Source: an uncultured Candidatus Saccharibacteria bacterium (GTDB taxonomy: Bacteria; Patescibacteriota; Doudnabacteria; UBA920). From it: a stretch of DNA of 64,000 nucleotides. The stretch covers positions 29,382-93,381 of the forward strand of contig CAZTCH010000004.1 of assembly GCA_964612745.1 (NCBI GenBank). The letters run 5' to 3'. The notes under the pieces are model-generated. The model was not told the DNA's origin. It saw only the letters and a list, made by a program, of their open reading frames with translations, and did not search any database. Shown here piece by piece: positions 2,013-61,036 of the stretch (the stretch's first letter is position 1; every line of letters begins with the position of its first letter). The position numbers were made by a program, and so were the translations under genes.

Positions 2013-2067
2013 CCTACCCTTCGGCCGTGAGCTCAGGGTCGAACGAAAACCTAACTCCTAATTCCTA
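2013..2067 (-). repeat. conserved 55-nt 3'-UTR element (copy 1; second copy 49641-49695)
   Basis: CCTACCCTTCGGCCGTGAGCTCAGGGTCGAACGA(A/C)AACCTAACTCCTAATTCCTA, 54/55 identical to 49641-49695. Both copies sit between a minus-strand stop codon (nusB here, uvrA there) and a terminator hairpin. Confidence 0.7.
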
Positions 2068-3418: not shown

Positions 3419-3459
3419 CCCCCCCTACTTACCTACAACCTAACTCCTAATTCCTGCCT

Positions 3460-5175: not shown

Positions 5176-5288
5176 ATTTCACGGATTACGGATTTCACGG
5201 ATAACACAGATCCCTTGCAAGACGTTTCGAAGAAGGAGAAACAATCTGCGGAATCCGTGATATCAGTGTATCTGTGGTTTAATTATAT

Positions 5289-5594: not shown

Positions 5595-5731
5595 ACATTA
5601 CCCCTAATGCAGATATACAGATTGATGCTGATCTACGGATTCCTACGGATTCTAAAATCTGTAGTCATCTGTATATCTGCATGGATCTGTAAATCGGCGT
5701 TACTTTAAAAAGGCTACACAGTGACATGAAA

Positions 5732-5758
5732 TTATCACTCTCTAGCACTGACTGATAA
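5732..5758. promoter_or_regulatory. degenerate CIRCE-like operator (TTATCACTC-N9-GACTGATAA) upstream of groES
   Basis: The left half equals the left half of the hrcA-proximal element at 46179-46205; the right half matches in 7 of 9 positions. The canonical CIRCE is TTAGCACTC-N9-GAGTGCTAA. Confidence 0.35.
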
Positions 5759-6089
5759 TAGTGTAGCAAAGCCCTAGCCCCTGTCAACGTTGACAAACCA
5801 CATCCATTTTTGCGCAGTTAAAAGTCCCAACACCTGCTCTGGAGCTTGCCGAAAAACCCTGCAAAACCACTGTCCCAACCCCCTATTTACCGTACAAATA
5901 TAACCCATAAGTAAATTGACAAAACATACTAAATATGGTAAAATACCAAAGTTTTCTGGATACCGCGTTAAACAACAGCTTTACGCGTCCATGATTGTGC
6001 ATACTCACCCATACACAGCCATGGCCCTGTAAATCGTTACAGCGCGCCAGACCCACATCAGAAGGAAAACAAAAGGAGCAAAGAAATTT

Positions 6090-6281
6090 ATGTTTGATTT
6101 ACCACCAGTCGTGTACATAGCTATCGGAATAGCTGGGTTTGTTTGCGTTTGGTATTTCACACAAGTCAAATTAACCTGCCAAGAGTGCGGCGCTTCCACA
6201 CGCCCTCAAAAAGAAAAAATAGCCGGCGTTGCCTACAACTACTGCCGGAACTGCGGTAATTGTCTTGGCAAAGCCGCTTAA
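6090..6281 (+). CDS. hypothetical small membrane protein with a CxxC...CxxC zinc ribbon
   Basis: 63 aa; AGGAG Shine-Dalgarno 8 nt upstream; one TM helix followed by CQECG...CRNCGNC. Confidence 0.45.
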   Translation: MFDLPPVVYIAIGIAGFVCVWYFTQVKLTCQECGASTRPQKEKIAGVAYNYCRNCGNCLGKAA

Positions 6282-6398
6282 ACAGCGATAAAGTCCCACT
6301 CGAATGACGATAAGGGGAACAACCCCGAAAACGTCATACCGAGACAATGGGAAAAGAAAAACTAGCGGTCTTAACACCGCAAAAATCAGGAGGAACCC

Positions 6399-8694: not shown

Positions 8695-9621
8695 TTACTT
8701 TTGACACTGCGGACAAAAACAAGCTGTTCTACCACCCATCTTCATGCTTTCTATCATACTACCACAGACTTTACACGCTTGTTTTTTCCTCCCGTACACA
8801 AAATGGTACTTACCCATACTCCCCCACGCGCCATCGGTTCGCACAAAGTCGCCCACGCTCGACCCCTTGGCGCGAATCCCTTGGCGCAATACTGGTCCGA
8901 TAGCTTCAAAGATTCGTTGCAACTCAGCAGTGGAGAGTGTAGACACGAGCCTTTCGGGACGCACCCCTGCACAAAATAAAATTTCATCGCTATATATATT
9001 CCCTATCCCAACCACCACGGCGGGGTCCATGAGCACTAGCTTTATGGGGCTCTTGGCTCGTCTCTGTACCGCAAGGATAAATTGCTCACTCGTGAACGAC
9101 TTATCCAAAGGCTCGGGGCCATAGTCTTGCAACTCTTGTATCTGTGCAACAGCATCGTCTGCTACAAGTTTCAAATACCCGAACTGGCGCATGTCATTGA
9201 AGTACAATGTACTACCATCGGTAAACTGAAACACCACATGAGTATGCTTACTGGGCAACTGTACCAGCGGTGCTGAAAGCTTGTTTAAAATTCTATATTT
9301 ACTCCCAGTCTTGGCACGCAAAGCAGGGTCTTCAAAAATAAACTGCCCTGTCATCTTCAAATGCACAAACAACGTATGCGAACCAGACAATTCGAATATA
9401 AGTAGCTTTGCTCTGCGCCGTACTGCTACAACTTGTACACCTTGCAGTGATTTGGCAAACCGTCCGGCAATTGATTTTGAACCTACACGCTTATTCCCCA
9501 GACCTTCTGGCCCAACTGCTACAAGCTTAAAAGACCGGACATCCACAGTACTTATGGTGCGTCCGGCAAGTTTTTTATGCAGCTCTCTAACTACGGTTTC
9601 GACTTCGGGTAATTCGGGCAT
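8695..9621 (-). CDS. mutM: formamidopyrimidine-DNA glycosylase (Fpg/MutM)
   Basis: 308 aa; begins MPELPEVE; H2TH region and C-terminal CxxC...CxxC zinc finger. Confidence 0.9.
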   Translation of the reverse strand: MPELPEVETVVRELHKKLAGRTISTVDVRSFKLVAVGPEGLGNKRVGSKSIAGRFAKSLQGVQVVAVRRRAKLLIFELSGSHTLFVHLKMTGQFIFEDPALRAKTGSKYRILNKLSAPLVQLPSKHTHVVFQFTDGSTLYFNDMRQFGYLKLVADDAVAQIQELQDYGPEPLDKSFTSEQFILAVQRRAKSPIKLVLMDPAVVVGIGNIYSDEILFCAGVRPERLVSTLSTAELQRIFEAIGPVLRQGIRAKGSSVGDFVRTDGAWGSMGKYHFVYGRKKQACKVCGSMIESMKMGGRTACFCPQCQK

Positions 9622-9628
9622 AAATGTA

Positions 9629-9685
9629 GTGCCTAGTGCCTAGTGCCTAGTGCCTAGTGCCTAGTGCCTAGTGCCTAGTGCCTAG
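9629..9685. repeat. 8 tandem copies of heptamer GTGCCTA
   Basis: Perfect 7-bp periodicity, visible directly, in the divergent mutM/rel intergenic region. Confidence 0.9.
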
Positions 9686-9718
9686 GAAAATTATAGCGGG
9701 CTGAGCGAGACTGTCCAG

Positions 9719-9880
9719 TGACTAAAAAGGATTGCGGATTGCGGATTGCGGATTATGAATTACGGATTACGGATTGCGTATTTTTCATTCAGCATTTTGC
9801 AATTTGCAATATGCAATATGCATTTCCGCTTTCTACTCTCTATTCTCTGCCCTCTACCCTCTCTGTTCTTTTCCCTGTAC
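9719..9880. repeat. successive heptamer-like arrays (GGATTGC x3 + GGATTAC variants; TGCAATA x4; CTCT(A/G)YY repeats)
   Basis: Direct visual repeats filling the rel upstream region; they also account for the spurious N-terminal extension of the ORF-track rel ORF. Confidence 0.8.
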
Positions 9881-9889
9881 ACTATACAC

Positions 9890-11401
9890 ATGACTTTTGA
9901 GCAATTTCTAAAATCTATCCCCCACAAGTTCAAGCCAGAAGAAGAAGCGCTTTTAGCCAACGCTTTGGAATTCGCGCGGGCCGCGCACGCTGGCCAAAAG
10001 CGCAAAAGTGGCGAGGATTACATTGTGCACCCGTACGAAGCAGCCATTTTGCTTGGGCAGATTTTTCCTGACGCCATAAGCCTTGCTGCAGTACTCTTGC
10101 ACGACGTCCCCGAAGACACGGCCAAAACCCAAGCGGATGTGCTAGAAGCTTTCGGCGAAGACGTTGCGCATTTAGTAGACGGCGTAACCAAACTCGGCCA
10201 CGTTCGCTTGCGCAACAGCAAAGACCCTCAATACGTCGAAACTTTGCGCAAAATGTTTATTGCCACCAGCAAAGACATTCGGGTCATGCTGATTAAGCTT
10301 GCCGACCGCTTGCATAACATGCGAACGCTCGAGTTTTTACCAGCAGAAAAGCAACTCAAAATCGCCACAGAAACACTGGAAGTCTACGCTCCGATTGCTG
10401 CTCGTTTGGGCATTAACTCTTGGAAAGATGAACTGGAAGACCGATCGTTTGCCATCTTTGATCCAACAACATATACCGAAACAAAAACGTTGCTCGACAC
10501 CGTTTTACAAGGGAGACAGCACTCTTACAAGCAAATCGAAAAAAAGATTACCCACGTACTGAAAACCGAAGGGATTAAATTTGTAGACATATACGGTCGC
10601 ACCAAACGTATTTATTCATTCTACAAAAAACTCAAAAAATACAATGACGACCCAAGCAATATTTACGATCTCATTGCTGTTCGGATTATTACCAAATCCA
10701 CCGCAGACTGCTACGCAGCACTGGGTGCCGTACATCAATACTTCCAACCGCTTCCTGGGCGTATTAAAGACTACATTGGCATGCCAAAGCCAAATGGCTA
10801 CCAAAGTTTGCACACTACTGTCTTAGACGAAGACGGTAGCGTATTTGAAATCCAGTTCCGTACCGATTTAATGCACGAAGCTGCCGAGCGCGGTATTGCT
10901 GCCCACTGGTTTTACAGCGAGTCTGGCAAACCAACGGCGAGCAGCAAAAAAGCTGCGGGTTGGGTCCAAGAGCTCCAACGCTGGCAAGAAGAAGCAGCCA
11001 ATTCAGATGACTTTGTAGAAAACCTGAAAATCGACTTCTTCAAAGACCGCATCTTTGTACTCACTCCCAGAGGTGACGTAAAAGACTTACCCAGTGGCGC
11101 CAGCGTTATTGACTTTGCGTTTTCCGTCCACTCTGACCTTGGATACTACATGACTGGAGCAAAGATAAACAATAAAATGTCTAAGCTCACTGCAACACTC
11201 GAACAAGGTGATGTAGTCGAAATACTGAAAAGCAAACAACCAGTAAAACTCTCACGCGACTGGCTCGCTGCCGCTCGCACCAGCACCGCCAAGAACCGCA
11301 TACGAGCGTACCTCATGGAGCATGACAAAGGCATTATGCAACGTGTACGGGAACTCAAACTTGCCGATATTGGCTTACCGACCTTCTTCCGTAAAAAATA
11401 A
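9890..11401 (+). CDS. rel: RelA/SpoT-family (p)ppGpp synthetase/hydrolase, short form (HD + synthetase + TGS, no long C-terminal regulatory region)
   Basis: HD motif (LLHDVPEDT), synthetase core, and TGS (VLTPRGDVKDLPSGASVIDFAF). Start taken at the internal ATG at 9890, after the repeat arrays; about 503 aa. Confidence 0.85.
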   Translation: MTFEQFLKSIPHKFKPEEEALLANALEFARAAHAGQKRKSGEDYIVHPYEAAILLGQIFPDAISLAAVLLHDVPEDTAKTQADVLEAFGEDVAHLVDGVTKLGHVRLRNSKDPQYVETLRKMFIATSKDIRVMLIKLADRLHNMRTLEFLPAEKQLKIATETLEVYAPIAARLGINSWKDELEDRSFAIFDPTTYTETKTLLDTVLQGRQHSYKQIEKKITHVLKTEGIKFVDIYGRTKRIYSFYKKLKKYNDDPSNIYDLIAVRIITKSTADCYAALGAVHQYFQPLPGRIKDYIGMPKPNGYQSLHTTVLDEDGSVFEIQFRTDLMHEAAERGIAAHWFYSESGKPTASSKKAAGWVQELQRWQEEAANSDDFVENLKIDFFKDRIFVLTPRGDVKDLPSGASVIDFAFSVHSDLGYYMTGAKINNKMSKLTATLEQGDVVEILKSKQPVKLSRDWLAAARTSTAKNRIRAYLMEHDKGIMQRVRELKLADIGLPTFFRKK

Positions 11402-14223: not shown

Positions 14224-14229
14224 ATAGTG

Positions 14230-14870
14230 ACCTCCTCCCCGAGTTCCGCAAAGCCTACACTCGGGGTATCCAACACGGCATGAATACTAAAAGCTTCGGA
14301 TAATGAGATTCGTTAAAAGAGTCTGGTTGTCTGGGGCTTTTCTTTCTTGCCCTGCCACTCAATGTACTTCTTAACCTGCTCCTCGTTCAATCCGTTTGTT
14401 GACGAGAAATACCCCACACTCCAGATGCCGTCCCATTCTAAATACATTTCTTTGATAAATTTAAACTTCTTTTGGATGTGGATACTACTGTTGGCTTTTA
14501 ACCTTTGGACGGCATCTGAGACAGCCATATTGGGTGGTATTTCGATTTGAATATGAACATGGTCTTGGTCTGAATTAACAGCTGTAATGAAGAGTGTGGG
14601 ATATTTCTTGCAGGTTTGGTAGAGACTTGTCTTTAGTTCTGCTTTAACGTAGTCTTTGAGCCACTTTCTCCGGTGCTTAGTGCCCCAGACAATGTGATAC
14701 AAGTGTCGATATGCGCAATGGTTAAGGCTTTTCGTCTTCATGCAACCAGCCTACCACGAATTCCAACGCAATGGGAATTCGTTCCCGGGATCCCATTCAT
14801 CCCCAGACCGCGACAATGAGAGTGGTGACTTGATTGCTTTCTAGAGGGTCGCTGGTCTGGGGTTTCCTGG
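14230..14870 (-). mobile_element. IS200/IS605-family insertion sequence (tnpA only) with subterminal hairpins
   Basis: Y1 transposase ORF flanked by hairpins: CCCCGAGTTCCGCAAAGCCTACACTCGGGG at 14237-14266, CGAATTCCAACGCAATGGGAATTCG at 14757-14781, and CCCCAGACCGCGAC...GTCGCTGGTCTGGGG at 14801-14862. Lies between the comEC start and the hisS terminator. Confidence 0.6.
14313..14741 (-). CDS. tnpA: IS200-type Y1 transposase TnpA
   Basis: 142 aa; YHIVWGTKHRRKWL and HxH motif (DHVHIQIEIPP), with the catalytic Tyr region near the C-terminus. Confidence 0.9.
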   Translation of the reverse strand: MKTKSLNHCAYRHLYHIVWGTKHRRKWLKDYVKAELKTSLYQTCKKYPTLFITAVNSDQDHVHIQIEIPPNMAVSDAVQRLKANSSIHIQKKFKFIKEMYLEWDGIWSVGYFSSTNGLNEEQVKKYIEWQGKKEKPQTTRLF

Positions 14871-14903
14871 TATATAAAAACCTCGGCCAAAGGCCGAGGC
14901 GTG

Positions 14904-21248: not shown

Positions 21249-21300
21249 AGTAATTGAGTTAGGAGCTATCCGCCGTCGCTAAAGCTATGGCGGACAAGTA

Positions 21301-21385
21301 AATTAGGAATTAGGAGTTAGGGCTATAAGCTATAAGGTATCAGGTATAAGCTATCAGCTATCAGCTATCAGCTATCAGCTATCCA
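21301..21385. repeat. heptamer arrays (AATTAGG x2-3; GCTATAA/GGTATCA/GCTATCA x about 9)
   Basis: AATTAGGAATTAGGAGTTAGG is the reverse complement of the CCTAACTCCTAATTCCT motif. AGCTATC is repeated perfectly 5 times in tandem. Confidence 0.85.
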
Positions 21386-36254: not shown

Positions 36255-36295
36255 AGCTTGAAAGCTGAAAAGCTAAGAAGCTAGAAAGCTTTGCT
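36255..36295. repeat. tandem (G)AAAGCT octamer/heptamer array x about 5
   Basis: AAGCTTGAAAGCTGAAAAGCTAAGAAGCTAGAAAGCTTTGC read directly from the sequence. Confidence 0.7.
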
Positions 36296-41240: not shown

Positions 41241-41280
41241 AGTAGTAAAGCTTATAGCGAGATACCTAATACCTTATAGA

Positions 41281-41643
41281 TCAAGAGCGCATGGTGTTAA
41301 TCATAGCATTCAACATTTTCATAACTTCTGTAAGCACACTTTTTACCTTTTTAATTTCATTTTGATTTGCAAGCCCCAGCATAGAAGCAACTTCTATCTG
41401 AGTTTCAAGTTCTGCGCCTGAAGCAAAAGCGATGGTAAGAAACTGACAATAATCTTTTTTGGTGCTTCTATATCTACCCTCAGCAATATTTGAAGGAATA
41501 GAAACTGCACTGCGCCTCATCTGCGACACTAAACCGAACCTTTCAGCATCAGGAAACTGAGCACTGAGCTCATAAACAAATTTAACTACCACCATTGCTT
41601 TTTGCCAAACAATTAAATCTCTATAACTTTGCTTTGTTTCCAT
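41281..41643 (-). CDS. four-helix-bundle protein (TIGR02436 / '23S rRNA intervening-sequence protein' family; same fold family as DGR Avd)
   Basis: 120 aa; YRDLIVWQKA...SQMRRSAVSIPSNIAEGRYR...FLTIAFASGAELETQIEVA. Inserted between DUF3467 and dnaJ inside the dnaK operon. Confidence 0.85.
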   Translation of the reverse strand: METKQSYRDLIVWQKAMVVVKFVYELSAQFPDAERFGLVSQMRRSAVSIPSNIAEGRYRSTKKDYCQFLTIAFASGAELETQIEVASMLGLANQNEIKKVKSVLTEVMKMLNAMINTMRS

Positions 41644-41698
41644 AGATTATTCTGCTATAAGCTATTTTGCTATGAAATGCCCACCTAACAACTATCCG

Positions 41699-41754
41699 CT
41701 ATAAGGTATAAGGTATCAGGTATAAGGTATCAGGTATAAGGTATCAGGTATAAC
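41699..41754. repeat. tandem GGTATAA/GGTATCA heptamers x8
   Basis: GGTATAAGGTATCAGGTATAAGGTATCAGG..., directly upstream of the 4HB gene. Confidence 0.9.
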
Positions 41755-46298: not shown

Positions 46299-46799
46299 AT
46301 GAAACAAACAAAAGCTGCCTTTGCCCTCCTTGCTGTAGTTTTTATCGCTGCAGGATGCAGTAAAGCAACCACGCAAAACAACGAGCCAACACCGACCCCG
46401 CTCCCAAGCCAAGCACAAGAGAGTACTCCCCTCCCTACTCCAAGTAAGATGAGCCTCAATCAACCATCACCCACCACTCCTACGGCCACTGCACAATATA
46501 AAGACTACTCAGCAGATGCTGTTGCCAAAGCCCAACAAGAAAACAAACGAGTGGTGCTATTTTTCCACGCAGCATGGTGTCCTACCTGTATAGCTGCAAA
46601 CAAAGCATTTAACGCAAACACGAACCAACTCCCCGCAGATGTTGTATTGCTCAAAACTGACTACGACACAGAAACAACACTCAAGAAAAAATATGCAATC
46701 ACCTACCAACACACATTCGTGCAAATAGATGCTTCCGGTAACCAAATAAGCAAGTGGACCGGTGGAGACGTGGAGAGTTTGAAGAAATACTTAAAATAG
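46299..46799 (+). CDS. thioredoxin-fold lipoprotein (WCPTC active site)
   Basis: Lipobox LAAGC; Pro/Thr-rich linker; LFFHAAWCPTC. Confidence 0.75.
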   Translation: MKQTKAAFALLAVVFIAAGCSKATTQNNEPTPTPLPSQAQESTPLPTPSKMSLNQPSPTTPTATAQYKDYSADAVAKAQQENKRVVLFFHAAWCPTCIAANKAFNANTNQLPADVVLLKTDYDTETTLKKKYAITYQHTFVQIDASGNQISKWTGGDVESLKKYLK

Positions 46800-46834
46800 C
46801 TATTAGGTGCTAGGAACTAGCTTCTAGTAAACAT

Positions 46835-47200
46835 ATGATTCAAAGCCATAAAGACCTCATAGTTTGGCAAAAGTCGATTACCTTAGTGACAGAGATTTAC
46901 CTTCTTACAAAAAACTTTCCGAAGGAAGAAATGTTTGGCCTAACGAGCCAAATTCGACGTACGGCAGTCTCAATACCTGCAAATATCGCCGAAGGTAGGA
47001 ACAGAGGTAGTAAAAGAGATTTTAGACACTTTTTATTGATTGCTTTTGCATCAGCAAATGAATTAGAGACACATTTGCTTATAGCAAAAAACCTATCTTA
47101 CACCACAGAAAATGAATTTTCTAGCACAACTGTTGCCACCACAGAAATATGCAAAATGTTGAGCACGATGATTAATAAATTGTCTGAACCTAGCTCCTAG
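46835..47200 (+). CDS. four-helix-bundle protein (TIGR02436 family), second copy
   Basis: 121 aa; HKDLIVWQKS...SQIRRTAVSIPANIAEGRNRGSKRDFRHFLLIAFASANELETHLLIA. Confidence 0.85.
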   Translation: MIQSHKDLIVWQKSITLVTEIYLLTKNFPKEEMFGLTSQIRRTAVSIPANIAEGRNRGSKRDFRHFLLIAFASANELETHLLIAKNLSYTTENEFSSTTVATTEICKMLSTMINKLSEPSS

Positions 47201-47224
47201 ATCCTAACTCCTAACAGCTATCCT

Positions 47225-48856: not shown

Positions 48857-48993
48857 AGAACACAGATACACCCGACTTCGCTAAAGCTACGACGGGCAAG
48901 CAAGCAAAACCGATTACACGGATGCAAACCCACTGATGAACAGCATGAATCCGTGTTATCTGTGAAATCTGTGTATCTGTGGTTACACATAAT

Positions 48994-49217: not shown

Positions 49218-49577
49218 ATGAAAATTCTTATTTACTACCTCTTGCTCCTCATTGCCATAGCACTTATTACCGGCTTTAGCATTTCTACCAGTGGCAATAT
49301 GGCCATGCCACAAATGCTCGCACTTTCTGCTGGGCTCGTGCTCTATGTAGTCGCTCTTTCTTTTGTCGGAGAAGGCGTACCAGAAGACGAACGAGAACAA
49401 CACCACCGGCACATCGCCAACCGTGCTGCTCTTGTTGCAGGCACTATTGTACTTTGTTTAGGAGTTGTCACCCAGCTCTTTATTTCCCACCGCATTGACT
49501 ACTGGCTCCTCTTTGGTTTAGTTACCATCAACCTCACCAAAATAATCAGCCTCATCTGGTTGAACTATAAGAAATAG
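49218..49577 (+). CDS. hypothetical membrane protein co-transcribed with the XRE regulator
   Basis: 119 aa; 3-4 TM helices. Confidence 0.55.
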   Translation: MKILIYYLLLLIAIALITGFSISTSGNMAMPQMLALSAGLVLYVVALSFVGEGVPEDEREQHHRHIANRAALVAGTIVLCLGVVTQLFISHRIDYWLLFGLVTINLTKIISLIWLNYKK

Positions 49578-49597
49578 AGGGTAGAGAATAGAGAATA

Positions 49598-49630
49598 GTA
49601 AAACAAAAAACCGCTTTTGCGGTTTTTTGT
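49598..49630. terminator. terminator (AAAACAAAAAACCGC-TTTT-GCGGTTTTTTGT)
   Basis: Hairpin with flanking A- and T-runs. Confidence 0.7.
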
Positions 49631-49640
49631 ATTACTACCA

Positions 49641-49695
49641 CCTACCCTTCGGCCGTGAGCTCAGGGTCGAACGACAACCTAACTCCTAATTCCTA
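49641..49695 (-). repeat. conserved 55-nt 3'-UTR element (copy 2)
   Basis: See 2013-2067; lies immediately 3' of the uvrA stop. Confidence 0.7.
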
Positions 49696-52563: not shown

Positions 52564-52858
52564 AAAGCAGTGAATAGTGGACAGTCGTTCGAGACCCTAA
52601 TGGGTTCTCAGACCCCCGAAGGGTGGGCAGTGACTAGTGGACCAACTGGTGCACTGTTCACTGATAACTGTTTACTGTTATTTATACTAACGTACACCTT
52701 AGCATAAAAATGGAAAAGTTTCAACTGTCTAAGGGTTTCTTAGGGTATTTACCAAGTTAAAGTTAAACAGAATAAAAAAAGAGCGGTGCGTTATTCAAAC
52801 ACATCGCCCGCAAGCCATAAAGACTTTTCAAAGAACAAAAAACTTAGGATTGCTAAGT

Positions 52859-52945
52859 TTATCTTATAGCGACAAAAATGACTGCCGCCCAAAACCCAGC
52901 CAGCGCCAGCACCACCCATCCACATGGAGTGATTCTGGATTTCAT
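52859..52945 (-). CDS. mini-ORF 4 of tandem set (28 aa, MKSRITPCGWVVLALAGFWAAVIFVAIR)
   Basis: AAGGAGG Shine-Dalgarno 6 nt upstream; single TM-like segment; hand-translated, below the ORF-track cutoff. Confidence 0.35.
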   Translation of the reverse strand: MKSRITPCGWVVLALAGFWAAVIFVAIR

Positions 52946-52956
52946 GGCTTGCCTCC

Positions 52957-53076
52957 TTATTCAACAGCCTGAACTGCTGTTGTGAATCTGTCAGTTAATT
53001 TGTGACCGCCGCGCGTAGCAGATAAAACCACTAAGCACAACGCGATTAGAATCAGAATTGAAACAAATGCTTTCAT
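52957..53076 (-). CDS. mini-ORF 3 (39 aa, MKAFVSILILIALCLVVLSATRGGHKLTDRFTTAVQAVE)
   Basis: Its ATG overlaps the stop of mini-ORF 2 (ATGA coupling). Confidence 0.35.
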   Translation of the reverse strand: MKAFVSILILIALCLVVLSATRGGHKLTDRFTTAVQAVE

Positions 53077-53210
53077 AGCACTACCACCGTTACCACATAC
53101 ATAACTATGGCGGCGGCGGCGCCGAAAGCTAGGGCTTTTGGGCTTCTGCTAAATATGGCGGTGACAGCACCACCAACGAAGCCAGAAGCTATAAATGATG
53201 CGAGATTCAT
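53073..53210 (-). CDS. mini-ORF 2 (45 aa, MNLASFIASGFVGGAVTAIFSRSPKALAFGAAAAIVMYVVTVVVL)
   Basis: CAGGAG Shine-Dalgarno upstream; two hydrophobic segments. Confidence 0.4.
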   Translation of the reverse strand: MNLASFIASGFVGGAVTAIFSRSPKALAFGAAAAIVMYVVTVVVL

Positions 53211-53235
53211 AAAACTCCTGTAGTTGTGTCAATTT

Positions 53236-53346
53236 TTACAGTAGCCAAAAATATGCAGCCACTGCGATTACCGTAGCCAAAAGTACGACTACGACAGAAA
53301 CTACACACCCCAATGGTGGTAGTTCTGGCCCGTCGCCTGGGTTCAT
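53236..53346 (-). CDS. mini-ORF 1 (36 aa, MNPGDGPELPPLGCVVSVVVVLLATVIAVAAYFWLL)
   Basis: GGAGGAG Shine-Dalgarno 4 nt upstream of the ATG. Confidence 0.4.
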   Translation of the reverse strand: MNPGDGPELPPLGCVVSVVVVLLATVIAVAAYFWLL

Positions 53347-53507
53347 TTATCTCCTCCTAAAGAGCCAAACAATAGGCTTTTGTGGCAGGTCAGCCGCTTG
53401 GCTGCCTGCGGGGTTTTATACATAACTACTCGCGCAAGTGCGAGTATTTATGCTATGGTTATACCACAATAGTCAACATTCGGCAATAGCCAGCACACAC
53501 CCCCAAA

Positions 53508-55553
53508 ATGGCCCAAACACTACAAAACCAAATAGTTCACTTCCCTCACGCTGCAGGATGCTACCTTTTTAAGGACGCCGCTGGAGTGGTTTTGTACGTG
53601 GGCAAAGCAAAAGACTTGCGAAAGCGCACATCGCAATACTTCGGGCAAGACAAACGACCACAGCTCCCCTTTTTAATAGAGGAAGCCACGAGCATAGATT
53701 TTATAGTAGCCCGAACTGAGCTAGAGGCGCTGTTTTTGGAAAACACGCTCATTAAAAAGCACAATCCTAAGTACAACATTAAACTAAAGGACGACAAAAA
53801 CTACGCGTTCATTGCCATTAACAACAGCACGCAAATCCCCCAAATTGGGTATGTCCGCAAAATTACTGACTCGGCTAGTTTTACCCCATTTGTAAATCCA
53901 TCCGCCTCTTGGGGTAGTGGCAAACACGAACGCAAACGGCTAAAAGTAACCAGCAGCAAACGAGGGGCATCCTCGTCTGCCGCTGACGAGGATGCCCCTC
54001 GTCGTGCAGCAACCCATCTCTTACCAGCTAATTCCTACTTCGGGCCGTACAGTTCGGTAAAAAAAATCCGCGATACGCTAGATTTTGTGCGGAAGATTTT
54101 CCCTTACTGTGCAAATACCGAAGTTGGTACGCGTCCTTGTTTTTACTACCACCTACATCGCTGTCCTGGGGTTTGTATTGGCGTAATTAGCTTAGAAGAA
54201 TACGCTGGCAGTCTTGAACGTATAAAACTGTTTTTGCAAGGAAAGACTCAAGCAATAAAGAAAGAACTACGCACGAGCATGCACGCAGCTTCTGCCAACA
54301 AACGGTTCGAGCTTGCCGCACGATTGCGTGACCAACTCAAGGCACTTGAGCTACTAGACGAACGACAGATTGCCCAGTTCCCCAGCAAAGTAAATTATGA
54401 CTTTATATCTACCGCAGAATCCGGTGCTTTGTGTTGTGTGAATTTGTTTAAAGTACGCGACGGCAAACTCACCGACAAAGAAAGTTTTGTGTACAGCCAA
54501 ACAACCACCGAGCAAGTTATCGAAGAAGAAAATACAAACCAAGTTGTTTCTTCTGCGGCCATGTTCCAACAAAAATTTGCCGAAACGTACTACGCAGAAA
54601 CAACAGACGTCCCTGCTGCGATTTTTACGCAACACGCATTCCCCGACCCTGACTTTATTACCGCCGTCCTCCAACATCGCACAACAAAGAAAATACCACT
54701 CAGCGTGCCCAAACGTGGTAAACAAGTACAACTCATTTCTCTTGGTGCAACAAATGCAGCAGAGTACTTGCGCAAAACACTCGCCACAGACGCTACCGAT
54801 GCCGACAAGCTACACGAAGCACTCGTCTTTCTACAGCAAACACTCAAGCTACCTACCTTACCCAGACGAATAGAATGCTACGACATGTCCAACACGCAAG
54901 GCACCAACCCTGTGGGAAGTATGGTTGTGTTTGTAGACGGCAAACCAGCCAAATCGGAATACCGTAAATTTAAAATCCGAAGCAAAGACACTCCGGACGA
55001 CTTTGCCATGATGCGAGAAGTACTAACTCGTAGACTCGCCAGAATGCAAAATGCAAAATTAGAAATGCAAAATGAAGAGCAAGAGACTTCTGCGCTCCCG
55101 CTCTGGCCAAGACCCGACCTTATAGTAATTGACGGTGGCAAAGGACAACTCTCGGCTGCTCTATCTGCGCAAGATTCATTTCTAAAAGGTATAAGCTATA
55201 AGCTAGCAGCTATTCCAATGGTTGGACTTGCCAAGCGCATAGAAGAAATTTTCCTACCAGAAAACCCTGTACCAATTATTCTGAATCACGACACTCCTGC
55301 ACTGCAAATGTTGCAAAGGCTACGTGACGAAGCTCATCGTTTTGGCATAACCTTCCACCGCTCTTTGCGCAGCAAACAAGCTACCAAATCTGCGCTGGAC
55401 ACCATTGCTGGAATTGGTCCAAAAACAAAAAAACTGCTCAAACAAAAGTTTGGAACAGTCAGCGCCATAAAAGAAGCGCTCCGCACAGAACCAGAAAAAC
55501 TGGAAGCACTCGTAGGTAAAGTAAAAGCAGAGATACTAAAGAAAAATCTGTAA
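53508..55553 (+). CDS. uvrC: excinuclease ABC subunit C
   Basis: 681 aa; GIY-YIG N-terminus (GCYLFKDAAGVVLYVGKAKDLRKR), UvrBC region, C-terminal HhH. Confidence 0.95.
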   Translation: MAQTLQNQIVHFPHAAGCYLFKDAAGVVLYVGKAKDLRKRTSQYFGQDKRPQLPFLIEEATSIDFIVARTELEALFLENTLIKKHNPKYNIKLKDDKNYAFIAINNSTQIPQIGYVRKITDSASFTPFVNPSASWGSGKHERKRLKVTSSKRGASSSAADEDAPRRAATHLLPANSYFGPYSSVKKIRDTLDFVRKIFPYCANTEVGTRPCFYYHLHRCPGVCIGVISLEEYAGSLERIKLFLQGKTQAIKKELRTSMHAASANKRFELAARLRDQLKALELLDERQIAQFPSKVNYDFISTAESGALCCVNLFKVRDGKLTDKESFVYSQTTTEQVIEEENTNQVVSSAAMFQQKFAETYYAETTDVPAAIFTQHAFPDPDFITAVLQHRTTKKIPLSVPKRGKQVQLISLGATNAAEYLRKTLATDATDADKLHEALVFLQQTLKLPTLPRRIECYDMSNTQGTNPVGSMVVFVDGKPAKSEYRKFKIRSKDTPDDFAMMREVLTRRLARMQNAKLEMQNEEQETSALPLWPRPDLIVIDGGKGQLSAALSAQDSFLKGISYKLAAIPMVGLAKRIEEIFLPENPVPIILNHDTPALQMLQRLRDEAHRFGITFHRSLRSKQATKSALDTIAGIGPKTKKLLKQKFGTVSAIKEALRTEPEKLEALVGKVKAEILKKNL

Positions 55554-60480: not shown

Positions 60481-60522
60481 CAGTAATAGTGGCTGACCAA
60501 TTTGGTCAGTCACTATTACTTT
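60481..60522 (+). terminator. near-perfect 18-bp hairpin (AGTAATAGTGGCTGACCAA-TTT-GGTCAGTCACTATTACT) followed by TTTG
   Basis: Visible palindrome immediately after the repeat block. Confidence 0.6.
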
Positions 60523-60623
60523 GTGTGCAAGAGAGGGCAAGAAGAACAACATCCAAAACCTTGAAACCCCTACAAATCCTCACTGTTACTCCCTATATTT
60601 AAGCGCTATTTACGCTATTTCGA

Positions 60624-60652
60624 TTGACAAAAGCAGATGACCAAGCTATAAT
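60624..60652 (+). promoter_or_regulatory. consensus sigma70-type promoter TTGACA-N17-TATAAT, about 385 nt upstream of rnj
   Basis: Perfect -35 and -10 hexamers with a 17-nt spacer; no ORF with a Shine-Dalgarno downstream until rnj. Confidence 0.6.
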
Positions 60653-61036
60653 GTGTTGGCAAGTAGACGAACTCCAAAGAAACAAAATTCTTACAGTTTA
60701 CAAATCAGACCTAGAAAACAGTTTTTTATTTTTGATTTGTTAATTGTGCCCCATCTTTTTGTGGGACCAAATTCTTATTGTGGCGATTGCATAAATCACA
60801 CGGTAAGCCTCAGGCATTTTTTGCCCAGCACGAGTTAACAATTTGCGTAATTCGAAAGAGCATAGCATCTACTGACGTTTATTAGGTGCAGAGATAAGAC
60901 GCTATATTTCTCAAGAATTATTCTTCTATCAAATAAGTGGCGAACCAGCTTTTCGCGACCAATAATACAGCGACCGATTTTATTTTACCGCTTGTTATTC
61001 TGGACCTGCACGAGCTGGTCACCACAATAGACACAC

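Follow-up and report, generated by a model that had tools for sequence, protein, structure and literature searches.

The window analysed here, a stretch of 64,000 nt from an uncultured Patescibacteria (candidate phyla radiation, CPR) genome, carries tandem arrays of 7-nt units in some of its intergenic spacers. Four of these arrays lie in the divergent spacer at 9622-9889, which has fpg (8695-9621, minus strand) on its left and rel (9890-11401, plus strand) on its right. Next to fpg stands a perfect (GTGCCTA)8.4 array on the minus strand (9627-9685), which Tandem Repeats Finder (TRF) reports as unit TAGTGCC with 100% matches. It is followed by a (GGATTGC/GGATTAC)7.7 array of 7 units (9729-9782), a (TGCAATA)3.6 array (9798-9822) that is partly complementary, in inverted orientation, to the GGATTGC array, and a weak (CTCTAYY)4.4 array (9832-9862; TRF unit TCTACCC). 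A preliminary description of the window had placed this succession before rel, and all four arrays are recovered by TRF. These arrays are genuine. Of all tandem periods, 7 alone is enriched in the window, and nearly all of the arrays are non-coding.

The evidence for the existence of tandem heptamer arrays consists of TRF calls with up to 100% matches, a shuffle test and the autocorrelation of intergenic DNA at lag 7, and on this point the preliminary description was correct. Arrays were tallied in 58 spacers comprising 9272 intergenic bases. At a score of 30, TRF is skewed to period 7, for which 2.1 copies suffice; because the threshold itself favours this period, raw TRF counts were discarded as evidence and comparisons rest on arrays of at least 4 copies or on a detector of our own. 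Exact runs of at least 3 copies number three at period 7 against 0.0 in 50 dinucleotide-preserving shuffles, and none are present in the window at periods 6 and 8-13. The tolerant detector finds 6 intergenic period-7 arrays amounting to 322 nt, against 0.05 expected, with periods 4-6 and 8-12 at chance in the intergenic DNA of the window; in coding DNA it finds just 2 weak period-7 arrays. On the strict count, arrays make up 3.5% of intergenic bases versus 0.09% of coding bases, and the intergenic autocorrelation has its maxima at lags 7, 14, 21, and 28.

The earlier impression that intergenic regions are filled with heptamers was an overstatement. About 12 arrays occupy about 8 of the 58 spacers and cover from 3.5% (strict) to 5.6% (generous mask) of intergenic bases. 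Once these are masked, no lag-7 excess is left in the intergenic DNA, and no trace of decayed arrays is seen. Spacers of all three orientations (divergent, tandem, and convergent) bear arrays, and there is no 5' versus 3' bias, the lag-7 excess being equal upstream of starts and downstream of stops. With head-to-tail units, an excess at period 7, a non-coding location and whole-unit length polymorphism, the arrays have the properties of long heptanucleotide simple sequence repeats (SSRs) and of repeats resembling the short tandemly repeated repetitive (STRR) sequences.

Other loci that had been described as heptameric fared unevenly. An AGCTATC/GCTATAA array placed at about 21321-21385 corresponds to the TRF call (GCTATCA)8.9 at 21322-21383, and eight copies of GGTATAA/GGTATCA at 41699-41754 correspond to (TATAAGG/TATCAGG)7.7 at 41700-41753. 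The recurrence of CCTAACT/CCTAATT, including an inverted copy near 21301, is confirmed in the form of an 18-mer of 2.5 heptamers, CCTAACTCCTAATTCCTA (7 matches against 0.02 expected), with copies at 2050-2067 (plus strand), 3439-3456, 21304 (minus strand) and 49678-49695 that are identical at three loci and have one mismatch at the fourth. A tract described as (G)AAAGCT heptamers scores as period 8 in TRF (36261-36290), and the ATCCGTAG/ATCTGTAT family has periods of 8-10 or 18 and consists largely of arms of inverted repeats. The unit was said to differ at each locus. There are indeed at least eight unrelated unit sequences within 64 kb; the generalization fails for the CCTAAYT family, found at five loci of the window, and for the KATACCT/GSTATMA family, found at 21322, 41241-41280, 41698, and inside uvrC at 55183. 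The uvrC copy (55183-55212) consists of in-frame GGTATAA/GCTATAA heptamers in the UvrC RNase H-like domain, with the peptide KGISYKLAA, and may represent a 21-nt array that was taken up into a coding region.

The multiplicity of units bears on the possibility that the arrays are tandem binding sites, iteron-like or operator-like, for one DNA-binding regulator. A precedent is provided by the cholera toxin promoter, with its TTTTGAT heptads for ToxR (bioRxiv 10.1101/2021.05.14.444153). For the window this explanation is highly improbable: the unrelated units are numerous, orthologous spacers in relatives hold different units, and a unit change swept the entire fpg array while the array itself was kept. 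The preliminary description had argued against a single transcription-factor site and against a clustered regularly interspaced short palindromic repeat (CRISPR) array, and contiguous 7-nt units that differ by locus agree with it on both counts. A CRISPR array is ruled out, as it would consist of 24-48 nt repeats with unique spacers about as long as the repeats. A common RNA or DNA fold of the arrays was not found either: z scores range from -6.6 to +2.1, and two arrays, those at 21300 in the hisS-HIT spacer and at 41698, have a minimum free energy (MFE) of 0 and are predicted to be wholly unstructured. In the Rfam search, tRNAs alone pass the gathering score and the arrays match no curated covariance model; the sub-threshold matches are almost all to microRNA (miRNA) precursor models and are taken as hairpin-like chance matches.

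Comparison with relatives reveals how the arrays change. The Rel protein of the window is 98% identical to that of L001, a metagenome-assembled genome (MAG) labelled Candidatus Saccharibacteria, and the DNA of the two is 88-92% identical, making L001 a different species-level relative. The fpg array has GCTTAGT in every unit in L001 where the window has GCCTAGT, the same C/T change in 8-9 units. The GGATTGC/GGATTAC array has 8 units in L001 against 7 in the window, with variant positions that differ, and the TGCAATA array is 14 nt (two units) shorter. At the position of the CTCTAYY array, L001 has an extra 88 nt with further heptamers, TAAGACN and CCTAAYY. Between the window and L001 no indels in multiples of 7 occur outside arrays; the other intergenic indels are of 1-4 nt, apart from one 650-nt IS200-like insertion. 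This last segment (14227-14876) is absent from L001, holds an ORF for an IS200-like Y1 transposase (14313-14741, minus strand; PF01797) and looks like a recent insertion.

A closer series of strains was assembled by exact-protein look-ups, which returned four contigs from other samples that encode an identical HIT protein (L162-L165). In the hisS-HIT spacer of the window, (CCTAAYT)3 (21301-21321, minus strand) adjoins the array at 21322-21383 (minus strand), which consists of (GATAGCT)5 followed by KATACCT/TATAGCT units, 9 in total. The first array has 6 units in the four contigs. The second has 10 or 11 units in close strains, with different variant blocks, and its long block is (GATAGCT)5 in the window and (GATACCT)4, 5 or 7 in the other contigs. 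Six sequences of this spacer represent five alleles; apart from the variant unit that makes up the long block, their sole differences are gaps of 7, 14, or 21 nt within the two arrays. The flanks are about 98.7% identical over 3.7 kb, and all 28-35 gap positions fall inside arrays. Close strains therefore differ by exact multiples of 7, as expected of the slipped-strand tracts that had been suggested. A scan of JGI metagenome contigs, among which the closest Rel is only 47% identical, is uninformative on strain variants.

In more distant relatives, CPR MAGs labelled Saccharibacteria or Doudnabacteria with Rel 64-79% identical, heptamer arrays stand upstream of rel or by the fpg start and have unrelated units. 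Relatives thus hold arrays at orthologous spacers with other units, and copy number varies between strains; the joint outcome that would have undone the original idea, a fixed copy number together with absence from relatives, is not what is found. Fast turnover at a fixed spacer and the concerted change of units are the marks left by slippage or unequal exchange in steps of 7 nt, combined with homogenization. An assembly or sample artefact might be suspected from the behaviour of short-read contigs, including those of the source sample, which end inside arrays, and from N gaps in L001 beside one array. Its probability is negligible, as the same arrays are present, with flanks in register, in independent assemblies that come from different studies (GenBank MAG, ENA, Logan).

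In the explanation favoured here, which we regard as likely, the arrays are heptanucleotide SSRs whose evolution proceeds by 7-nt slippage; they are for the most part neutral or nearly so, modulatory at most, and one of them probably forms the fpg leader. Arrays would be born, expanded, contracted, and homogenized in 7-nt steps, by replication strand slippage or by unequal exchange between sister strands; a new variant of the unit would therefore spread through an array or vanish from it, and arrays would outpace the flanking DNA but keep their spacer. Any effect on a gene would depend on the position of the array, which would act neither as a sequence-specific binding site nor through a common RNA fold, and two pairs of arrays form inverted arms around genes of the PF05635 family. 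The preference for 7 would stem from the way slippage and repair work in certain lineages, in accordance with a published hypothesis.

The anatomy of the fpg-rel spacer illustrates the dependence on position. On the minus strand the fpg array reads (CUAGGCA)n and stops 5 nt before the fpg start codon (9621). A promoter-like TGGACA-16-TATAAT with 11/12 consensus matches faces fpg (9690-9717, minus strand) and sits in a 36-nt non-repeat block, GGAAAATTATAGCGGGCTGAGCGAGACTGTCCAGTG, that is 100% identical in L001, in contrast with the lower overall identity of the two genomes. A transcript start about 7 nt past the -10 element would coincide with the first unit of (CUAGGCA)8, and the fpg ATG would follow about 62 nt on. 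Since it is located between a conserved near-consensus promoter and a start codon, the array is read as a leader; it is probably essentially the whole 5' leader of the fpg mRNA, and its anatomy points to this role instead of the tuning of promoter spacing. The predicted fold of this leader is about -25 kcal/mol (-25.9 kcal/mol for the array RNA; z -6.6) and only -3.4 kcal/mol with the L001 unit, so that the structure is not conserved, and no conserved leader hairpin of the hmw type, an RNase III substrate, is found in the fpg array. Similarly, a hairpin predicted for the GGATTGC and TGCAATA arrays together, with about 15 uninterrupted pairs and extensions beyond them (-33 kcal/mol, z -5.3), is not kept in L001 (z -0.8).

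On the other side of the spacer, a -10-like hexamer, TACACT (9878-9883, plus strand), lies 6 nt before the rel ATG, and the final 31 nt ahead of rel are identical in L001. From this arrangement rel is probably leaderless, and the arrays to its left would therefore be upstream of its promoter. Hexamers of the -10-like form TAYAHT, often TGCTATACT, concentrate 6-8 nt before the ATG (8/61 genes), while a motif resembling the Shine-Dalgarno (SD) sequence precedes just 7/61 genes. Few SD-like motifs combined with -10-like hexamers near start codons suggest that leaderless mRNAs are widespread in this genome.

These positions invite the proposal that the arrays are selected expression rheostats, located in 5' leaders or intercistronic RNA, which would determine translation or the stability of the mRNA and whose copy number would tune output. 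The placement of the fpg array exactly between promoter and start codon speaks for this, and several arrays or degenerate arrays end at most 10 nt from a start codon. The scarcity of SD-like motifs and the persistence of arrays upstream of fpg and rel in distant relatives favour it as well, and precedents are available in the hmw leader (PMC12721329) and in the TAACTGA repeats of Beggiatoaceae (PMC4679880). The proposal is nonetheless rather unlikely for the arrays as a class, given that the lag-7 excess is equal downstream of stops, that arrays also occupy convergent spacers, that the fpg leader structure is lost with the L001 unit and that orthologous spacers hold unrelated units.

A more specific form of regulation, in which the arrays would be classical contingency loci switching genes on and off at high frequency, would agree with a copy number that is polymorphic between strains and with intergenic positions near promoters. 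The neighbouring genes are fpg, rel, hisS, HIT, dnaJ, uvrA, and nusB, with no surface or restriction-modification genes among them, and no frame-shifting arrays lie inside reading frames. The same pattern is seen in free-living Desulfobacterota and cyanobacteria, and arrays are also found in 3' and convergent spacers. Classical phase variation, which the preliminary description had entertained, is accordingly a very improbable explanation.

The arrays with the most distinctive setting flank genes of the PF05635 family. In the 23S rRNA intervening sequences (IVSs) of Leptospira and Coxiella, a PF05635 ORF lies in the loop and the stem is cut by RNase III. The window contains two genes of this family of 23S rRNA IVS proteins, or Avd-like four-helix bundles. 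The first, IVP1 (41281-41643, minus strand; Pfam E=1.9e-37), occupies a slot between DUF3467 and dnaJ. Its upstream arm is the (KATACCT)7.7 array called by TRF (41693-41753, minus strand), which has an MFE of 0 on its own, and its downstream arm consists of degenerate (AGGTATW) heptamers (41241-41280, minus strand) that take up the entire spacer to dnaJ. The two arms are inverted complements with a predicted duplex of -29.6 kcal/mol (z -3.5). The second gene, IVP2 (46835-47200, plus strand; Pfam E=1.8e-40), matches PDB 2GSC (XCC0516) with E=7.9e-22 and lies between a gene of 167 aa and a DsbD-like gene. The upstream arm is AATAGC TATTAGG TGCTAGG AACTAGC TTCTAG (46795-46834, plus strand), and the downstream arm, (CCTARNT)3.9 (47189-47215, plus strand; TRF unit CCTAACT), lies 9 nt before the DsbD-like start. 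These arms, (NNYTAGG)n and (CCTARNT)n, are complementary, with a predicted duplex of -28.6 kcal/mol (z -5.8).

Both IVP1 and IVP2 resemble the rRNA IVSs in that a PF05635 ORF is placed between inverted repeats with the potential for a long stem. They differ from them in lying among protein genes and not in 23S rRNA: in the window and 17 other loci the cassette is found between protein genes of operons and has arms made of heptamer arrays. Further members of the family comprise 2 on a Desulfobacterota-like contig, 5 in other CPR genomes and 10 on cyanobacterial or Riemerella plasmids, and the loci studied are the window, L130, L168, L170, L174, and L176-L187. In a sample of 17-19 genes, some in orthologous slots, with controls from 15 loci, 13/17 PF05635 genes have a strict period-7 array no more than 90 nt away, against 21/147 same-locus controls (Fisher P=2e-7), and arrays are present on both flanks of 5/17 against 1/147 (P=4e-5). 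A period-7 array marks 19/38 flanks of PF05635 genes, compared with 0-4/38 for periods 5, 6, and 8-11. The link is not demonstrable in L130 alone, as most spacers of that contig hold arrays. For complementarity of one flank to the other, IVP1 and IVP2 rank third and fourth among 60 window genes, and the PF05635 gene ranks first in L168, L170, L174, L177, L178, and L179 and second in L176. The array pairs are mostly inverted, and direct in two, L181 and L184 (Pseudanabaena and Oscillatoria).

The association spans CPR, Desulfobacterota, Cyanobacteria, Bacteroidota, and Xanthomonas. In Xanthomonas campestris, GGGAATC repeat #15 of a published table overlaps the start of XCC0516, the gene for the protein of PDB 2GSC. 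The genes occupy co-directional operon slots, among them DUF3467/dnaJ, cas6/cas4, cas10/cmr3, parA/parB, prfA/ftsE, accB/... and a type IV secretion operon. The arm upstream of IVP2 has a homologous counterpart in an arm of the cassette that fills the DUF3467/dnaJ slot in L168, L169, and L186; the same slot holds IVP1 in the window, with arms unlike those of the three relatives. The homology of the IVP2 arm to a cassette in another slot therefore indicates that arms and ORF move together. A tblastn search with IVP2 against 72,556 plasmids returned 49 records, almost all from cyanobacteria and Riemerella, and our literature search found no paper linking the PF05635 family with heptamer repeats.

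From these observations the arrays might be parts or derivatives of mobile PF05635 cassettes, in each of which an ORF is enclosed by a pair of heptamer-array arms capable of forming a long stem, like that of the rRNA IVSs cut by RNase III; arrays away from such genes, those at fpg/rel and hisS/HIT for example, would represent isolated arms, derivatives without the ORF or arrays that cassettes had seeded. The enrichment of arrays beside and on both sides of these genes, its restriction to period 7, the top complementarity ranks, the recurrence across phyla (Xanthomonas repeat #15 at XCC0516 included) and the shared IVP2 arm in L168 and L186 all speak for this possibility. So do the sequence GATACCTTATA(C/G)CTTATAGC, which the hisS-HIT array and the IVP1 arm have in common, and the plasmid matches, which fall mostly in cyanobacteria and Riemerella, groups with reported heptamer repeats. 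On the opposite side, neither the window nor six relatives have a PF05635 ORF, or what is left of one, in the fpg-rel and hisS-HIT spacers, most arrays of array-rich genomes are not beside such genes, and the flanking arrays are direct in two loci. The sample is also small and partly orthologous, and the association could come from insertion into pre-existing arrays. The cassette origin is thus a tentative alternative, less probable than local slippage. A related suggestion, also doubtful at present, is that the lineage-restricted abundance of heptamer repeats tracks PF05635, a family of Avd-like, pentameric four-helix bundles, either because cassettes seed arrays or because the protein acts on or binds heptamer-repeat RNA or DNA. 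If the protein acts on the repeats, each paralogue might be paired with its own units, IVP1 with KATACCT and IVP2 with CCTARNT; both units recur elsewhere in the window.

The prevalence of heptamer arrays varies across lineages. In loci fetched through Rel, 15.6 arrays per 100 kb are counted for the window, against 15-29 for its CPR relatives, 12-39 for MAGs of the Desulfobacterota type, 1.1 for Firmicutes, and 0 for Myxococcota. The Desulfobacterota-type set holds 127 strict arrays in 16 loci, with 95% of array bases outside long ORFs; these loci, far more densely supplied with arrays than the window, include L015, L017, L019, L021, L024, L036, L038, L041, L046, and L130, and the arrays are frequently adjacent inverted pairs. 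Adjacent inverted pairs without an ORF between them are also frequent in CPR relatives (L003 11020-11103; L005 12239-12303 and 9713-9770; L006 4422-4524), with units such as TAAGCAG/GCTTACT and TTTATCC/AAGGATA, and are potential expandable hairpins. The sharing of units between CPR and non-CPR loci is not significant (6 canonical units against 3.2 +/- 1.7 expected).

Heptamer repeats with the units CCCCAGT, TTGGTCA, and CAACAGT were reportedly described as STRRs in Calothrix and Nostoc by Mazel et al. in 1990. Like the arrays of the window, the cyanobacterial STRRs are spacer arrays in which a few unit families recur at many loci; unlike them, they have unrelated units, and the genome of the window is tiny and belongs to another phylum. 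None of the three units matches a unit consensus of the window or its CPR relatives. The finding that heptanucleotide tandem repeats are over-represented in the intergenic DNA of bacteria goes back to Mrazek, Guo, and Shah (2007), according to later accounts, in which heptanucleotides are the commonest class of long SSR in many bacteria and about 7 nt is proposed to be the length of DNA in contact with the polymerase, favouring slippage (PMC4679880, PMC4692102). As summarized there, the long SSRs share with the window 7-nt tandem units, a prominence of period 7 over 5-11, an intergenic location, many units per genome, a sporadic phylogenetic spread, and slippage as the proposed cause. The notion of an undescribed repeat family is therefore not tenable, these accounts placing bacterial intergenic heptanucleotide repeats in 2007 and the cyanobacterial ones in 1990 (PMC4679880, PMC4692102).

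Other systems resemble the arrays in part. The GGGAATC repeats of Xanthomonas and Nostoc occupy orthologous spacers with extensive variation in length and sequence (Rehm et al. 2015; PMC4692102); some are paired in inverted orientation, one is placed in the groES-groEL spacer, and another adjoins a PF05635 gene. Units of this type are G-rich and quadruplex-capable, whereas those of the window are not G-rich. The TAACTGA repeats of marine Beggiatoaceae, Cyanobacteria, and Bacteroidetes (MacGregor 2015; PMC4679880) are, like some arrays of the window, direct heptamer repeats located a few nt ahead of start codons; a single unit predominates in the genome in that case, whereas the window has many units and arrays in 3' spacers too. 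In Haemophilus influenzae, (ATCTTTC)n at hmw1A and hmw2A is a 7-nt SSR in a 5' leader that undergoes slippage and forms an RNase III hairpin (PMC12721329); it belongs to a single virulence locus with proven phase variation, unlike the arrays of the window, which adjoin housekeeping genes. Additional cases are (GATAGRA)n in Chloroflexus and heptamers in Geobacter. The arrays of the window are a new lineage of this known type of heptanucleotide repeat; our literature search found no report of heptamer repeats for Patescibacteria.

Several considerations weigh against the slippage explanation favoured above. Slippage is read from its products, and it leaves both the preference for 7 nt and the restriction to certain lineages unexplained. 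Neither the recurrence of identical or related units at separate loci nor the movement of whole arms with PF05635 genes is predicted by purely local slippage. The persistence of arrays at the same spacers across deep divergence could reflect selection and not repeated birth, and the lack of decayed arrays, which fits rapid purging, also fits selective maintenance.

Additional repeats and unusual segments of the window accompany the arrays. A short array, (AATAGAG)3.7, in a convergent (3'/3') spacer (49573-49598) adjoins a bidirectional terminator hairpin. A dispersed element of about 55 nt, CCTACCCTTCGGCCGTGAGCTCAGGGTCGAACGAMAACCTAACTCCTAATTCCTA, is located at 1995-2067 and 49640-49695, right after the stops of nusB and uvrA and beside terminator hairpins; the flanks of uvrA are complementary, with a predicted duplex of -60 kcal/mol (z -3.7). 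A hairpin-like motif, TTCGCTAAAGCTACGRCGG, occurs at 1200, 2955, 21275, 42490 (minus strand), and 48877; a search allowing up to 3 mismatches gave 4 sites against 0.03 expected, the site at 2955 having been recognized by eye in the alignment. One of the copies is directly 3' of tRNA-Gly, and another, between the heptamer arrays and the HIT start, is kept in all strains. The ATCCGTAG/ATCTGTAT repeats (ATCYGTRK; 2881-2942, 5176-5288, 5605-5702, and 48909-48981) make up imperfect inverted repeats at several places, among them the region upstream of groES and the groES-groEL spacer; groES is fifth among the 60 window genes for flank complementarity, and no sequence resembling CIRCE (controlling inverted repeat of chaperone expression) was seen at the groES/groEL repeats. 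Three stretches of 550-940 nt (52564-53507, 5595-6398, and 60487-61036) are free of ORFs of at least 70 aa and have no Rfam match at E<=0.1 beyond weak miRNA-precursor models, taken as chance.

The arrays extend a known and unexplained class of bacterial repeats to the Patescibacteria, which is mildly surprising because these genomes are of about 1 Mb and spacer DNA is scarce. In practical terms, the arrays break short-read assemblies and provide natural strain markers. They also alter the promoter-proximal or leader sequence of housekeeping genes among close relatives. The origin and function of the cyanobacterial STRRs have been open since 1990, the function of 23S rRNA IVS proteins that stand alone is a second such question, and the reproducible link between PF05635 genes and heptamer arrays across five phyla bears on both questions.

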